A stretch of 39,798 nt of DNA, taken from the NCBI GenBank assembly GCA_016182425.1, contig JACPGP010000033.1:1-39798 (forward strand), in the 5' to 3' direction. Under the pieces are notes generated by a model, which was not told the DNA's origin, ran no database searches, and worked only from the letters and a program-made list of their open reading frames with translations. Shown one piece after another: positions 4,118-15,757 of this stretch (position 1 is its first letter; each line of letters begins with the position of its first letter). The position numbers and the translations under genes were made by a program. Origin of the DNA: Candidatus Levyibacteriota bacterium. Lineage in GTDB: Bacteria; Patescibacteriota; Microgenomatia; Levybacterales; UBA12049.

Positions 4118-4801
4118 ATGATAAAGCTTGATAAGGTTTCCAAAACATTCATTCTTGGTTCCTCTGGTCTTGTCGATATTACCCTGGTCATAGATAAAGG
4201 CGAGTTTGTCTTTTTAGTTGGCCCGACAGGATCGGGTAAAACAACGATTTTTCGGCTCTTAATCCGCGATATGCTTCCATCAAAGGGAACGATTATTGTA
4301 GGAGATTTTGATATTGTGAAACTCCCTCATCACAAAGTGCCACATTTACGAAAAAAAATCGGTGTGGTGTTTCAGGATCTAAAGCTGTTAATGGATAGGA
4401 CTATATTTGAAAATGTGGTGTTGCCTTTGGAAGTTTCTGGTGTAAAACCAGAGGAAGCAAAAAAAAGAGTTGAAGCAGTATTAACCCAGGTGGGAATTTT
4501 GGAGCATTACAATAAGTTTCCCATACAGCTTTCGGGAGGGGAGCGTCAAAGAGCGGCAATTGCGCGAGCACTGGTATTTTCCCCAGACCTGCTTTTAGCA
4601 GATGAGCCGACTGGCAATTTAGACCCATCAACCGGTCGTGATATCGTGAATCTTCTTTTGGGAATCAACGAAAAAGGCACAACCGTGGTGATGGCTACCC
4701 ATAATATAGACATTGTTAATAATCTACAGAAGCGTGTTGTTGCGTTGGATAAAGGGAGAGTAATTCGAGATCAGAAGAAAGGGAAATATGCGACATCTTA
4801 A
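4118..4801 (+). CDS. ftsE: Cell division ATP-binding protein FtsE
   Basis: Walker A GPTGSGKT, LSGGERQR signature, LADEPTGNLD, LRKKIGVVFQD; adjacent to ftsX. Confidence 0.95.
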   Translation: MIKLDKVSKTFILGSSGLVDITLVIDKGEFVFLVGPTGSGKTTIFRLLIRDMLPSKGTIIVGDFDIVKLPHHKVPHLRKKIGVVFQDLKLLMDRTIFENVVLPLEVSGVKPEEAKKRVEAVLTQVGILEHYNKFPIQLSGGERQRAAIARALVFSPDLLLADEPTGNLDPSTGRDIVNLLLGINEKGTTVVMATHNIDIVNNLQKRVVALDKGRVIRDQKKGKYATS

Positions 4802-11371: not shown

Positions 11372-12379
11372 ATGAAATTACTAGTGACAGGAGGGGCAGG
11401 GTTTATTGGCTCCAATTTTATTCTCTACTGGCTCAAACATTATCCACAAGATTCGGTTGTTAATTTCGATAAACTAACCTACGCTGGGAATTTGGAGAAT
11501 CTTAAAGAGGTTGAGAATAATTCTCATTACAAATTTATCCAGGGAGATATTTGTGATGCAGAATCAGTAAATGTTGCAATGCAAAATATTGATGCTGTGG
11601 TGCATTTTGCAGCCGAGAGTCATGTTGACAGATCAATTCTTGAGCCAGCTCCTTTTGTTATGACAAATGTTGTTGGTACACAAGTGCTTTTAGATAGCGC
11701 TGTTAAAAATCGAGTAAAAAAATTACACCATGTGTCTACAGATGAGGTATTTGGAAGTCTATCTCTAGAGGATACGAATAAATTTAATGAACGAACACTT
11801 AATAACCCCAGAAGTCCTTATGCGGCAAGTAAAGCAGGATCAGATCATTTGGTGCGAGCGTACCATACCACATATGGTTTGCCTATTACAATTACCAACT
11901 GTTCAAACAATTTTGGCCCTTATCAGTTTCCAGAAAAACTTATTCCTTTGGCAATTACGAATCTTTTAGAGGGTAAAAAAGTGCCGGTATACGGAGATGG
12001 ACTATATGTACGAGATTGGCTATATGTTGAAGATCACTGTCGTGCGATTGATATAGTTTTACAAAAAGGACGAGTTGGCGAAACATACTGTGTTGGCGGT
12101 CTAACAGAGGATATTAATAACCTGGCAATTATAAAGAAAATTTTGTCTCTTCTTGGAAAAGGTGAAGAGTTCATAGAATTTGTCAAAGATAGACCAGGAC
12201 ACGATAGAAGGTATGCAATTGATTGGTCAAAGATAAAAAATGAGCTGGGATGGCAGCCTCGGCATTCGTTCGATGAGTATCTTTTGAAGACTGTGGAATG
12301 GTACAAAACTCACGAAAGTTGGTGGAAGCACGTTAAAAGTGGCGAGTATCAGAAGTACTACTCAAGACAGTATGATTGA
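11372..12379 (+). CDS. rfbB: dTDP-glucose 4,6-dehydratase
   Basis: LVTGGAGFIGSNF, DKLTYAGN, HFAAESHVDRSI, YAASK, DRPGHDRRYA. Start set at the ATG at 11372. Confidence 0.96.
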   Translation: MKLLVTGGAGFIGSNFILYWLKHYPQDSVVNFDKLTYAGNLENLKEVENNSHYKFIQGDICDAESVNVAMQNIDAVVHFAAESHVDRSILEPAPFVMTNVVGTQVLLDSAVKNRVKKLHHVSTDEVFGSLSLEDTNKFNERTLNNPRSPYAASKAGSDHLVRAYHTTYGLPITITNCSNNFGPYQFPEKLIPLAITNLLEGKKVPVYGDGLYVRDWLYVEDHCRAIDIVLQKGRVGETYCVGGLTEDINNLAIIKKILSLLGKGEEFIEFVKDRPGHDRRYAIDWSKIKNELGWQPRHSFDEYLLKTVEWYKTHESWWKHVKSGEYQKYYSRQYD

Positions 12380-12500
12380 CTTAACTTACCAAATTACCCT
12401 AGCACAACCCCCTTTTTTCTTAGCTGTGATTGCTGTGGCTGTTGTTTACTATGTTTTTGGTAAAAAATCCCCCGCTTGTCAAATTGCACGCATTTTTTAA
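12372..12500 (+). CDS. Putative 42-aa single-TM small protein (below the ORF-track cutoff)
   Basis: MIDLTYQITLAQPPFFLAVIAVAVVYYVFGKKSPACQIARIF*. The ATG overlaps the end of rfbB; a TM helix is followed by KK. The last codons come from the inverted repeat. Confidence 0.5.
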   Translation: MIDLTYQITLAQPPFFLAVIAVAVVYYVFGKKSPACQIARIF

Positions 12501-12514
12501 CCAAAATTTTGCAA
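12476..12514 (-). repeat. Left 39-bp inverted repeat (site A)
   Basis: ttgtcaaattgcacgcattttttaaccaaaattttgcaa. Confidence 0.95.
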
Positions 12515-12585
12515 AAAATGAAAGATTAAAAGTAGATTTTAGATCACTATTATAGTCTAAAGTAGTAATTATACCAGTGAAAAAT

Positions 12586-12623
12586 TTGCAAAATTTTATA
12601 CCTTTTTTTATTGCAATTTGACA
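12586..12623 (+). repeat. Internal copy of the two-arm site (site B)
   Basis: TTGCAAAATTTT-N14-TGCAATTTGACA. Arms and spacing are identical to sites A and C; the spacer sequence differs. Confidence 0.85.
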
Positions 12624-12758
12624 CTATGTGTAAGGTTTATACGAAATATATAGATATGTTTAATAAAAACTGTTGATTTTAAGCCTAAGATTATACGTTT
12701 TATTAAAGGTCTTCTAAACTTTTTGATTAAAACTTACATCCGAGAGAGGCCATCGAAT

Positions 12759-13301
12759 ATGAGCAAGGAGATACCACAATCACAACCGGATTTACCACGC
12801 CCTGGCGATGGCCAGGGCTTCCAGGCGCCCAGCCCAGTCCGACCCTCAGAGCTGCACCCTTTCCAGGGGGGCATGCCCCCTATCCCGCCAGTGGGAGACC
12901 CGCCGACATGTACTCCCAATAGACCAGAGTTCCACCAGCCACGCAGTGAGCTGCCCCCACCAGAACCGCCATTACCCCACCCTGCACATGGTCTAGGCTA
13001 CTCCCCGACGGCCGAAGAAGTCGCCAGGCTGGAGGAGCTGGAGTTGCGGCGCAGAGCGCAAAACCGAGAGCGGCAACGCTGCTGGCGGCAACGTCACCCC
13101 GATAAACACAGCGAAAACAAGAGGAAGTGGCGCGAGCGCCATGCTGCTCAAATTGCTCAACACAGGGCTGCGTATGATAAGAAGTACAATAGCAAGCCCG
13201 AAGTGAAAGAGCGTAAGGCTAGGCAAGCCCGAGAGCGGTACGCACGGAAAAGCGCAGCCTCGGCCCACTCCTCACTCGAAAAAGTCTCGCCAGGGGCGTA
13301 A
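12759..13301 (+). CDS. Orphan protein: Pro-rich disordered N-terminus, Arg/Lys-rich helical C-terminus (possible nucleic-acid binder)
   Basis: GC-rich ORF; the ATG at 12759 has an upstream GAGAGAGG. C-terminal RRRAQNRERQRCWRQRHPDKHSENKRKWRERH. Confidence 0.65.
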   Translation: MSKEIPQSQPDLPRPGDGQGFQAPSPVRPSELHPFQGGMPPIPPVGDPPTCTPNRPEFHQPRSELPPPEPPLPHPAHGLGYSPTAEEVARLEELELRRRAQNRERQRCWRQRHPDKHSENKRKWRERHAAQIAQHRAAYDKKYNSKPEVKERKARQARERYARKSAASAHSSLEKVSPGA

Positions 13302-13396
13302 CGTGACGGCGGTTCCCGTGTTATATTCTATACACTGTAGTATAACTTAATACCGGGCAGACAACCGGAAACCCCCGCGCTTGTGTGTGTAAGATT

Positions 13397-13588
13397 TCAG
13401 TCAAAATTTGAGGTATTTTTCAATGTTTTGAGGCTAGAACATTGAAAGATAGAGTATAATAACATTGAAATCTTACACTCAAAGGGGATATTCGCCTCTG
13501 GCCAGTCGGTATCCTGTGGTAGATGACGGTAACGTCGCGCAAACATGTCCAGAGGGTATATAAAACTCTGTTCATAGGGGGTTGTCAT
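13397..13588 (-). CDS. Hypothetical small ORF or degraded gene
   Basis: 63-aa ORF starting 17 nt after the stop of the 159-aa ORF; weak SD; composition changes halfway along. Confidence 0.3.
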   Translation of the reverse strand: MTTPYEQSFIYPLDMFARRYRHLPQDTDWPEANIPFECKISMLLYSIFQCSSLKTLKNTSNFD

Positions 13589-13605
13589 CTGTTATCGTAT
13601 CCAAA

Positions 13606-14085
13606 TTACCGATGAGGGAGAAAGCCTCCGTCCCAGAGGAGTTCCGGTTGCAGGTTTCTGTCACCATTACCATATCGGAGCTTAATATCGTTCCTGGCAG
13701 CTTCGACCAAATCTACATCCTCCCCGTGGCAGCCCTGATAGAGGTCTACAAAGACCTTCTTCGGCCGGAGAGCTAGAGACAGTTCAACAAATATCGGACC
13801 GATAGCATCTGCCTTAGGGCTGCGGCGCTCCTGTGATGCAGGCGGACGCTCCTCCAGATAAATAACACGGCGTTCACGCCCTAACTCATCTTCGGCATCC
13901 AAGATACCCATCCACGAGTATCGTCCTGACGAATATACTGCGTAAAACAGGCCTTGCCAGAGGGCGTTAATACGCTCGTCCCGGCCGGGGAAGTTTGCTT
14001 TCAGAACATCGGCAAGGGGAGGAGGTGGTTTGATACCTATATTATTTTCGGTAGCAAACATGGGAAGTTCGTGACGCGGTACCAT
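13606..14085 (-). CDS. Orphan hypothetical protein
   Basis: 159-aa ORF with a GGAGGA SD 5 nt upstream and a canonical promoter. Confidence 0.7.
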   Translation of the reverse strand: MVPRHELPMFATENNIGIKPPPPLADVLKANFPGRDERINALWQGLFYAVYSSGRYSWMGILDAEDELGRERRVIYLEERPPASQERRSPKADAIGPIFVELSLALRPKKVFVDLYQGCHGEDVDLVEAARNDIKLRYGNGDRNLQPELLWDGGFLPHR

Positions 14086-14102
14086 TATATTCCTCCGTGT
14101 TG

Positions 14103-14131
14103 ATTATTTCATAGCTGTTGCTTGATGTCAA
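14103..14131 (-). promoter_or_regulatory. Sigma70-type promoter for the 13606-14085 ORF
   Basis: Minus strand TTGACA-17nt-AATAAT, then GGAGGA and ATG. The -35 lies inside the palindrome gcttga-tg-tcaagc (14120-14133). Confidence 0.65.
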
Positions 14132-14340
14132 GCCGGTTCGCAAGCCCACTCATAACACCAAGCGCGCTGGCCTATTACAGACAATCGGTCGGACGGAAGA
14201 CCCCTTAACGCTATCGACCACAACGGACTTGGAGGTTGCTTGCACACCATCTTGAATCGTTCGGCTCTGCCGGTGGCCCCTTGCTGTAGATGCTGGAGGC
14301 CCCGGAATAACCGAAACGCAGTCCACGGGAGGATGTCAAA

Positions 14341-14379
14341 TTGCAAAATTTTGGTTAAAAAATGCGTGCAATTTGACAA
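14341..14379 (+). repeat. Right 39-bp inverted repeat (site C)
   Basis: ttgcaaaattttggttaaaaaatgcgtgcaatttgacaa. It also forms a 12-bp IR (tgtcaaattgca 14334-14345 / tgcaatttgaca 14367-14378). Confidence 0.95.
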
Positions 14380-14449
14380 ATAATACTATTTTTGTCAGAA
14401 GCGTGAACTGTTACTGGCTTAGAGTGCCCTTCCGTTTTTCCTTATGGCA

Positions 14450-14458
14450 TGTTAGAAT
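14450..14458 (+). promoter_or_regulatory. Extended -10 promoter element for ugd
   Basis: TGTTAGAAT, 9 nt upstream of the ATG at 14468. Confidence 0.5.
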
Positions 14459-14467
14459 AAGATTCTT

Positions 14468-15757
14468 ATGACGATAACATTTGTGGGGCATGGATATGTT
14501 GGGCTTGTGTCTGCCTCGATTTTTGCGGAGTTGGGCAATACGGTTTGGGTTATTGGACATACTTCTGAAAAAATCGAAAACCTCAAAAAAGGGATCATTC
14601 CCATCTACGAACCAGGACTTGAGGAAATAGTTAAAAGAAACGTTAAGGCAAAGCGTTTGCTGTTTACTCTTTCCTACAAAGAAGCAATACCCGCGTCAGA
14701 CGCGGTTTTTATTGCTGTAGGTACGCCTCCGAAGAAAAACGGCGAAGCAGATCTTTCGGTTGTTTTTGCAGTGGCAGAAAAGATTGGGAGAAATCTTGAT
14801 GGGTATACAGTTGTTGTAACAAAAAGCACAGTACCAGTTGGGACAAATTTTGAAGTTAAAAAAATTATTGAAAAAGTTTTGCCACAGAAAGCCACGTTTG
14901 ATGTAGCCTCAACACCAGAATTTTTGCGCGAAGGCCAGGCCATTTCCGATACACTGCATCCAGATAGAATTGTAATTGGCACAGAAACAAAACGAGCAGA
15001 GGAAAAACTGGTCGAGCTTCATAAACCAATTGATGGAACCATGGTCCTTACCACTATTCCAACTGCTGAAATGATAAAGTATGCGGCAAATGCTTTTTTA
15101 GCCACAAAAATTTCGTTTGCCAACGCCATCGCGCAGCTTTGTGAAGTAACAGGAGCAGATGCTTTAGGGGTACTGGAGGGAATTGGTTTGGATAGCCGGA
15201 TTGGCAAGTCATTCCTTTCTCCAGGGCCAGGGTATGGCGGAAGTTGTTTCCCCAAAGATGTTAAAGCGCTTATTGCCATAGCAAAACAACATGGGTACAA
15301 GTTTTTGCTTCTTAAGGATGTTGAGGCGATTAACGCTCAGGCGATGGAAGGGATTGTATACAAAGCGAAAAAACTGCTTAAAAATCTTAAGGGAAAAACA
15401 ATTGGAATTTTGGGCCTTTCATTTAAGCCGGATACCGATGATATGCGAGATGCCCCTTCGATTGTTATTATCAATCAATTACAAACAATGGGAGCAAAGA
15501 TGAAGGTGTACGATCCGATTGCGATGGATAATGCGAAGAAAATCTTAAAACATGTTATTTTTTGCAGCGATTCCTACGAGGCCGCTAAAGATACAGATTT
15601 GCTTATTGTTATTACAGAATGGAATGAATTTCGACAGCTTAACTTAGGTAAAATAAAAGAATATATGAGGCAACCAGTTCTTATTGACGGAAGAAATATT
15701 TACGATCCTAATGTTGTACAAAGGCTTGGTTTTATCTATAGAGGGGTGGGAAGATAG
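14468..15757 (+). CDS. ugd: UDP-glucose/GDP-mannose 6-dehydrogenase
   Basis: VGHGYVG, IAVGTP, KSTVPVGT, PEFLREG, GYGGSCFPKD, FKPDTDDMR. Confidence 0.95.
   Translation: MTITFVGHGYVGLVSASIFAELGNTVWVIGHTSEKIENLKKGIIPIYEPGLEEIVKRNVKAKRLLFTLSYKEAIPASDAVFIAVGTPPKKNGEADLSVVFAVAEKIGRNLDGYTVVVTKSTVPVGTNFEVKKIIEKVLPQKATFDVASTPEFLREGQAISDTLHPDRIVIGTETKRAEEKLVELHKPIDGTMVLTTIPTAEMIKYAANAFLATKISFANAIAQLCEVTGADALGVLEGIGLDSRIGKSFLSPGPGYGGSCFPKDVKALIAIAKQHGYKFLLLKDVEAINAQAMEGIVYKAKKLLKNLKGKTIGILGLSFKPDTDDMRDAPSIVIINQLQTMGAKMKVYDPIAMDNAKKILKHVIFCSDSYEAAKDTDLLIVITEWNEFRQLNLGKIKEYMRQPVLIDGRNIYDPNVVQRLGFIYRGVGR

Follow-up and report, generated by a model that had tools for sequence, protein, structure and literature searches.

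Why does a tiny groundwater bacterium of the Levybacteria carry the same two-armed DNA motif three times at one locus: are the copies targets of a recombinase, operators of a regulator or parts of a mobile element? The locus lies in a stretch of 39,798 nucleotides (the window), which is the entire contig C11 of a 797-kb genome assembly (38 contigs, 39.6% GC, 88% complete). A preliminary description of the window had noted three copies of the motif TTGCAAAATTTT-N14-TGCAATTTGACA and had interpreted them as a three-site recombination geometry, which would allow small inversion, large inversion or excision of a circle:

12477-12514, minus strand: site A, arm-N14-arm copy
12586-12623, plus strand: site B, arm-N14-arm copy
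14341-14378, plus strand: site C, arm-N14-arm copy

The observation itself was verified in all its parts. A pattern scan matched the 24 arm bases of each copy with 0 mismatches, the spacing of the arms is 14 nt throughout, A and B are separated by a gap of 71 bp, and the starts of B and C are 1755 bp apart; 100 dinucleotide shuffles, which set the chance expectation for the motif, contained it 0 times. A and C form a perfect 39-bp inverted repeat (12476-12514/14341-14379) with the common spacer GGTTAAAAAATGCG, whereas the spacer of B is ATACCTTTTTTTAT, and B shares nothing but the two 12-bp arms with the other two sites. A fourth exact copy of arm 2 (14334-14345, minus strand) overlaps arm 1 of C. 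Each of the three 38-bp sites terminates in ACA and contains two direct repeats of the form TGCAA(A/T)(A/T)T, TGCAAAATT and TGCAATTTG, whose starts are separated by 25 bp and which enclose an A6 or T7 tract.

Both arms are confined to this one locus in the 797-kb genome. The full motif has 0 matches in 60 relatives and 0 matches in 185,579 species genomes (one genome per species), and among 241 million metagenome records it was matched exactly once (L012), on a contig without long ORFs, which looks like a chance match. The preliminary description had considered that the motif might be common genome-wide upstream of ordinary genes, as a promoter or transcription factor site; the scans of the bacterium's own genome and of the 60 relatives found it only here and, being confined to one locus, it is not a generic promoter or regulon site.

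The three sites are located between two host genes, together with the following features:

11372..12379, plus strand: rfbB (dTDP-glucose 4,6-dehydratase), the left host gene; an ORF, the identical product of which matches Pfam Epimerase/GDP_Man_Dehyd
12380..14467, no strand: insertion of 2088 bp, missing from the two closest relatives that share the gene order
12655..12779, plus strand: AT-rich leader and first seven codons of cargo gene 1, delimited by blastn
12759..13301, plus strand: cargo gene 1 (P0001), 180 aa from ATG, GC 55-66%
13388..13477, plus strand: canonical HP palindrome (the 'I2' hairpin) between the convergent cargo genes; covariance model R1, 108 bits, E = 2e-23
13606..14085, minus strand: cargo gene 2 (P0002), 159 aa
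14103..14131, minus strand: promoter-like site for P0002, TTGACA-17-AATAAT with TG, 11/12 positions
14468..15757, plus strand: ugd (UDP-glucose 6-dehydrogenase), the right host gene

In the two closest relatives, which keep the gene order tsaE, tsaC, CAP-domain gene, rmlA, 142-aa gene, rfbB, ugd and epimerases, rfbB and ugd are adjacent, with a gap of 9 bp in one (L023, CP066685.1, a complete Levybacteria genome) and a 4-bp overlap in the other (L024); the 2088 bp are therefore an insertion. Its core has a GC content of 50-66% in a neighbourhood of 38% and carries two convergent genes. The insert splits a surface-polysaccharide (glycan) operon and, with its two genes, is now probably immobile. 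The joins are real, since the insert junctions are reproduced at 99.9-100% identity by independent k=31 assemblies of more than ten runs from two accession series (SRR43434xx and SRR121133xx-4xx, the locus being carried by SRR4343428-30 and SRR12113383-433); these assemblies break 30 nt into A or C, as a 39-nt repeat predicts. Contigs of several runs (Logan) also end at the left border of the central HP (13386-13415); the words that this region shares with the copies on contig C5 are shorter than k=31, and the breaks may reflect hairpin-related coverage loss.

The products of the two cargo genes reveal little about their function. P0001 (in the protein record 192 aa, counted from an upstream TTG) has a Pro-rich N-terminus and a basic helical C-terminus; it has no Pfam or PADLOC match and only one weak PHROG match, and over a stretch of 86 aa it is 41% identical to the product of a cassette in an array on contig C5. 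Its leader (12655-12779) is 96.8% identical to that of a different cassette gene in the same C5 array (L029, 3147-3271): two different GC-rich cassette genes thus have a near-identical AT-rich leader and seven first codons, followed by abrupt divergence. Either a recombination junction or a portable module for expression could account for the common leader. P0002 belongs to an unnamed small alpha/beta family of ~140-aa proteins with the conserved motifs SGRFSWMG and LALRP..FLDLYY; a search returned 43 matches at E ≤ 0.001 including itself, i.e. 42 distant homologues, and those from elsewhere do not adjoin HP repeats. Its AlphaFold2 model has a pLDDT of 87, and no match was obtained in Pfam, PADLOC, PDB folds or PDB sequences. 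Both proteins were rejected as the recombining enzyme, as neither has an informative domain match. Rfam yielded no match over 12300-14500.

The central hairpin turned out to be the key to the three sites. In a blastn comparison of the insert with the genome, its 98 nt (13384-13481) are repeated on C5, and about eight copies of the family are present on two contigs of this genome. HP is an imperfect palindrome of ~90 nt, which begins with TGTAAG and ends with CTTACA: between the outer stem (TGTAAGATTTCA/TGAAATCTTACA) and the inner stem (ATTTT(T/G)CAAT/ATTG(A/C)AAAAT) lie two 15-nt bubbles without complementarity, the inner stem encloses a loop of ~16 nt, and the halves contain ATTGAAA twice, 25 nt apart. 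Compared with shuffled sequences, it folds with z about -5 to -6. Across 18 copies, 94.7% of cells are paired in the two-stem structure, and 8 pairs are changed on both sides versus 2.5 in shuffles; as the outer stem was fixed by the search pattern, only the inner stem is an unbiased test of the structure. A transcription terminator was rejected, since no T-run is present 3' of the stem.

On C5, about five HP copies separate unrelated cassettes between a pcrA/uvrD fragment and tpiA:

174-4651 of C5 (L029): cassette array with two MazE/AbrB-PIN pairs, a P0001 homologue, a 204-aa orphan and a ParE-Phd pair

One of the MazE/AbrB-PIN pairs is GC-rich, the other AT-rich. On either side of the array, the promoter and first codons of tpiA are present as an imperfect direct repeat of ~70 bp (174-243 versus 4582-4651), and one HP copy has a 21-nt insertion (L029, 3885-3905) that forms a GC-rich mini hairpin (CCCGATTAAATCGGG) flanked by repeated CAAA.

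An exact-pattern scan detected HP also in Daviesbacteria, other Patescibacteria and several 0.6-1.2 Mb MAGs labelled as Gammaproteobacteria. The latter ('uncultured Gammaproteobacteria', L038-L040, L045-L047 and L050) are probably mislabelled: the gene neighbourhood of at least L045 (femX, methyltransferase) is that of CPR genomes, which suggests a label error. The copies are often arranged in arrays, in which GC-rich ORFs alternate with 2-5 co-oriented repeats, and a single repeat orientation is kept within those of C5, L043, L045 and L049. Their cassettes, which are foreign and mostly GC-rich and many of which are toxin-antitoxin pairs, have GC contents of 0.51-0.57 in genomes at 0.32-0.40 and lie outside the ends of each HP. 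The arrays occupy matching chromosomal spots across CPR lineages, next to pcrA or between femX and a methyltransferase gene. A target-site duplication was found at 0 of 29 HP-pattern matches (about 25 of which are family members), and no HP was found in viral contigs. In a Saprospiraceae MAG, two ~100-nt elements (L037, 1483-1580; L044, 969-1073) have the 12-nt termini TGTAAGATTTCA...TGAAATCTTACA around an unrelated interior and may represent another miniature element with the end sequence of HP. Neither Rfam nor the searchable literature (integrons, attC or repeats in Patescibacteria, and the box sequence) yielded a description of the HP family, which is apparently undescribed.

Compared with HP, the three sites resolve into two elements, X and Y:

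12477..12623, minus strand (tentative family orientation): element X (site A, 71-nt loop, site B), a 147-bp two-box palindrome
12477..12488, minus strand: X outer box, A side (arm 2, TGCAATTTGACA; terminus TGT/ACA), exact match
12503..12514, minus strand: X inner box, A side (arm 1, TTGCAAAATTTT), exact match
12586..12597, plus strand: X inner box, B side (arm 1), exact match
12612..12623, plus strand: X outer box, B side (arm 2), exact match
12626..12638, plus strand: putative remnant of the HP left outer box (TGTGTAAGGTTTA) directly after B, assigned by eye
14334..14378, plus strand: element Y (fourth arm-2 box and site C), a 45-nt mini palindrome

The order, orientation and spacing of the boxes are the same in the A, B and C sites as in HP, so that A and B, which face outward, together make up one complete two-box palindrome: its inner boxes surround a loop of 71 nt and are separated from the outer boxes by 14-nt spacers that are not complementary to each other. 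Y is the letter-for-letter reverse complement of X minus 102 nt, and the deletion lies between two TTGCA pentamers; both elements start with TGT and end with ACA. Two features of the sites are thereby accounted for. The 39-bp identity of A and C results from two copies of one half-element in opposite orientation, Y being a copy of X, and the differing spacer of B results from the bubble that the two 14-nt spacers of X form. The three-site geometry of the preliminary description is accordingly replaced by a simpler one, in which B is the partner of A and C is a second, deleted copy. B was also proposed to be an accessory or operator site, but A and B are the two halves of a single palindrome, and what had been regarded as a barrier to crossover in its spacer is the normal non-complementary internal bubble of the HP family.

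Several comparisons connect X and Y to HP. Arm 2 (complement TGTCAAATTGCA) agrees with the HP outer box at 9/12 positions, the three differences being mirrored on the partner arm, and arm 1 includes ATTTTGCAA, which is the inner box of HP as found on C5. Relatives from the bacterium's own family have 154-nt HP variants with long loops (63-69 nt), to which X aligns from end to end with ~50% identity (z = 4.5-5.5 for three of four pairings, 2.1 for the fourth), as well as a 57-nt mini variant that lacks the inner stem. The covariance model R1, which was built from HP alone, without X and Y, recognizes Y in a hit over 14331-14381 (21.5 bits, E = 0.002), where the outer stem is matched as a hairpin that has undergone compensatory changes; the A and B halves alone are not significant (E = 0.5-1). 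Judged by these alignments, X and Y are diverged members of the ~90-nt two-stem HP palindrome family, the similarity of X to HP being moderate. As X, Y and HP belong to one repeat family, the insert, with the layout X - P0001 - HP - P0002 - Y, is a mini cassette array.

With their conserved arms, free spacer and mirrored changes relative to HP, the arms behave like candidate protein-recognition boxes, and the mirrored changes would be equally compatible with the folding of a hairpin and with symmetric binding of a protein. Neither X (flanks CCCCCGCT/CTATGTGT) nor the segment from X to Y (flanks CCCCCGCT/AATAATAC) is bordered by a target-site duplication of 4-8 bp. The loop of X contains an extended -10 element (TGGTATAAT; minus strand, 12576-12568), which reads out through A, antisense to the 3' end of rfbB.

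Which enzyme could act on such elements? No conventional site-specific recombinase was found: the assembly (88% complete) encodes no Phage_integrase protein (PF00589), not even XerC/D, and no serine recombinase with a Resolvase domain (PF00239). All 11 other HP-bearing genomes encode 1-6 Phage_integrase-domain proteins, and the missing Phage_integrase and XerC/D genes probably reflect the absent 12% of the assembly; on the HP contigs of these 11 genomes, 0 tyrosine recombinases were found. A different candidate emerges from the neighbourhood of HP, where Pfam identified istA (rve and Mu-transpos_C_2) and istB (IstB_IS21). HP adjoins the istA-istB pair in 5/5 genomes that have both on one contig:

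4760-6883 of L035: HP-linked istA-istB locus
4957-6987 of L049: HP-linked istA-istB locus
1579-3700 of L050: HP-linked istA-istB locus
L040: HP-linked istA-istB locus
L047: HP-linked istA-istB locus

The arrangement is constant, with the cassette array on the HP side. The start of istA is located 41-43 bp from HP in four genomes, and a 5'-truncated istA abuts HP in the fifth (L047); two of the five pairs are intact, one is frameshifted and two are pseudogenes, including the truncated copy. Intact HP-linked loci are those of the Daviesbacteria contig MFDF01000001.1 and of CAZDFU010000009.1. Wherever the 5' end of istA is intact (four copies), its leader is conserved and contributes one half of a split, near-consensus promoter: TTGACT within HP and, 17 nt away, TATAAT in the leader. 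A remnant of the leader can persist without istAB and then precedes the next host gene. On the other side, the stop codon of istB abuts a host gene (pcrA or a methyltransferase gene), and no HP-type box is found downstream of istB at the HP-linked loci. As the far end of istAB has no such box, the pair does not resemble an ordinary two-ended insertion sequence; it looks fixed or domesticated rather than free.

Beyond these loci, the association is less strict. No IstA match was obtained in the window's genome or in seven other HP-bearing genomes, and a 45%-identical IstA in G564 has no HP nearby. Among 194 genomes of the window's family, HP occurs in four and IstA homologues in four, with an overlap of two (P about 0.002), a weak statistic because in one of the two IstA lies on a separate small contig without HP.

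The organization of IS21 ends provides a framework for these findings. An IS21 end consists of two direct repeats (R1 and R2) separated by 23 bp, both of which are required; the terminal dinucleotide is CA, and two like ends are usable by the enzyme (PMC10122671). An IstA tetramer synapses two ends, the DNA being sharply bent at the R1-R2 junction, and insertions generate 5-bp duplications (PMC10122671). On balance, we regard the sites as end modules of a miniature mobile element of the IS21 type and not as three independent recombination targets. An IstA-like DDE transposase would bind to the boxes, the inner repeat being 'structural' and the terminal one 'catalytic', and segments framed by two such elements may have been moved or captured with its help. 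The present locus would most likely be what remains of a composite that carried cassettes between two copies of the miniature IS21-type element; because this genome's assembly contains no IstA-like transposase, it is probably immobile and inert.

Of the idea that the arms are protein-binding sites, one part thus persists, namely the box-like conservation in an IS21-type end layout, and another is given up, the equivalence of the three as recombination sites; neither a tyrosine nor a serine recombinase nor IstA is present in the assembly to serve such a geometry. The link to IstA is the best supported of the explanations. We infer it and do not count it among the observations because target duplications are missing, HP is found on one side of istAB only, and the cassettes lie outside the HP ends. 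The last point in particular fits poorly with simple transposition, which does not explain it.

The main rival to the link with IstA is an attC-like, structure-specific mechanism, which we consider unlikely but serious: HP, X and Y would fold as single strands into hairpins of the attC type, at which a recombinase captures circular cassettes as in integrons. The enzyme could be some other recombinase or the istAB pair fixed at the array edge. The array organization favours this mechanism, in that co-oriented repeats separate unrelated cassettes, many of them toxin-antitoxin pairs, at matching chromosomal spots across CPR lineages (pcrA; femX-methyltransferase). It is also consistent with the structure of the repeats: the two-stem fold is supported by its z of about -5 to -6 and by covariation, the loop varies from near 0 to 71 nt (in X) like the variable terminal structure of attC, G-T wobble pairs are confined to one strand, and target duplications are absent. 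However, no tyrosine recombinase is encoded on the HP contigs of the 11 genomes or in this assembly. The 12- and 10-bp boxes and the 15-nt bubble are unfit for attC, AAC/GTT triplets are lacking, X and Y are oppositely oriented, unlike array repeats, and the cassettes apparently have their own promoters and occur in both orientations.

An alternative source of mobility is provided by HUH Y1 transposases, of which the genome has five, all with intact HUH and Tyr motifs:

8357-8983 of C2: Y1 (RAYT/IS200-like) gene
3645-4346 of C34: Y1 (RAYT/IS200-like) gene
1-696 of C8: Y1 (RAYT/IS200-like) gene
7306-7986 of C29: Y1 (RAYT/IS200-like) gene
14487-15197 of C37: Y1 (RAYT/IS200-like) gene

Two of them (C29 and C37) are bracketed by their own inverted repeats of 17-20 nt. 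That HP and X are REPIN-like hairpin repeats mobilized by these enzymes is improbable. Five intact Y1_Tnp genes in a genome of 797 kb, the build of HP and X as inverted doublets that form long hairpins, and the absence of target duplications would suit such a relationship, but the flanks of all five genes show no similarity to HP or the arms, the repeats carry no GTAG or CGTC tag, and their copies, about eight in number, are clustered at cassette boundaries and not dispersed.

An invertible or excisable switch, closest to the geometry of the preliminary description, would flip the 1.8-kb A-C segment or delete B-C by means of a recombinase and thereby alter the expression of the downstream glycan genes. 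The perfect 39-bp A/C inverted repeat, the position of the locus within a surface-polysaccharide operon and the extended -10 element TGGTATAAT in the X loop, which would face ugd after inversion, invite this explanation. The assembly, however, contains neither a tyrosine nor a serine recombinase, the interior consists of foreign cargo instead of a promoter module, all three independent contigs that pass through C have the window's orientation, no rearranged junction appeared in the assembled contigs, and the origin of Y as a copy of X fully accounts for the identity of A and C. The switch keeps a small probability because 39 bp are long enough for occasional RecA-mediated inversion, which would turn the -10 element of the X loop toward ugd.

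It is very unlikely that the palindromes are operators to which a regulator from the host or from a cassette binds and in which TTGACA serves as a -35 box. Arm 2 does terminate in TTGACA, B is situated 136 bp upstream of gene 1 and C between gene 2 and ugd, and P0001 has a basic helical tail; yet no acceptable -10 element follows any TTGACA of the arms, A points toward the 3' end of rfbB, proteins similar to P0001 occur as mere cassettes in the C5 array, and a motif unique to one locus is no regulon site. Finally, an assembly chimera, in which GC-rich foreign DNA was joined to a Levybacteria contig via the repeat, is hardly credible: the jump in GC from ~38% to 55-66% and repeats able to mislead assemblers might suggest it, but the AT-to-GC transitions lie in unique sequence, and every junction recurs at 99.9-100% identity when many runs are assembled independently with k=31.

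If the link between HP and IstA holds, it would open a new route of cassette capture, for which HP halves and the A, B and C sites are directly testable substrates. A palindromic boundary element that frames cassettes would appear to be a handle on the uptake of foreign genes by ultra-small CPR bacteria: it is common to Levybacteria, Daviesbacteria and other CPR genomes, and it is repeatedly tied to an IS21-type transposase. As a tentative and rather doubtful extension, the arrays might constitute an integron-like gene-capture platform of CPR bacteria that is built on an IS21-type transposase. An istA-istB pair would be fixed at the edge, with its promoter split between HP and the leader, and foreign, often GC-rich cassettes, possibly host-derived, would be stored between co-oriented palindromes at conserved sites; between rfbB and ugd, the same machinery would have produced an ectopic mini-array with a variant palindrome.

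Among known systems, IS21 ends and their MITE derivatives come closest to the elements described here. X, Y and HP share with them the TG...CA termini, and each end has two direct repeats (25 bp apart here compared to ~23 bp) with a bendable junction between them. As in IS21, two like ends would be usable, an outward -35 element in the HP end and a -10 element in the istA leader make up a promoter, and the related HP family is physically linked to istA-istB. In contrast to IS21, there is no 5-bp target duplication and no istA in this genome, the linked istAB pairs have HP on one side only and abut host genes, and the elements occur in arrays with foreign cassettes between them.

These arrays resemble those of integrons and CALINs, in which co-oriented imperfect palindromes separate unrelated, often toxin-antitoxin, cassettes. 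HP has the two-stem architecture, unpaired spacer and variable loop of attC, and HP arrays, like CALINs, are found at fixed chromosomal positions with no adjacent integrase. Unlike attC, with its 7-bp R/L boxes and AAC...GTT, HP has boxes of 12-13 and 10 bp and a bubble of 15 nt, as read from the alignment. Moreover, no IntI is linked in any genome examined, the candidate enzyme being a DDE transposase with an AAA+ helper, the cassettes of HP arrays apparently have their own promoters and lie in both orientations, and X and Y are mutually inverted at rfbB-ugd, unlike the co-oriented repeats of C5, L043, L045 and L049.

Three further systems share individual features with the locus: (i) mobile insertion cassettes and MITE-bounded composites likewise carry transposase-less passengers between perfect inverted repeats (here A/C, 39 bp), but here the target is not duplicated, the genome has no cognate insertion sequence, and one end is a complete mini-element while the other is a deleted copy; (ii) REPINs and RAYTs have in common with it a hairpin-forming inverted doublet of about 90-150 nt and RAYT-like genes in the genome, in contrast to the low copy number, the clustering at cassette boundaries and the lack of a sequence link to RAYT flanks seen here; (iii) in invertons, too, inverted repeats flank a segment within a glycan locus, whereas here no invertase was found, the interior is foreign cargo and 3/3 contigs over C have a single orientation. 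Taken together, the locus combines features of MITE-bounded elements and composite transposons with an integron-like array organization.
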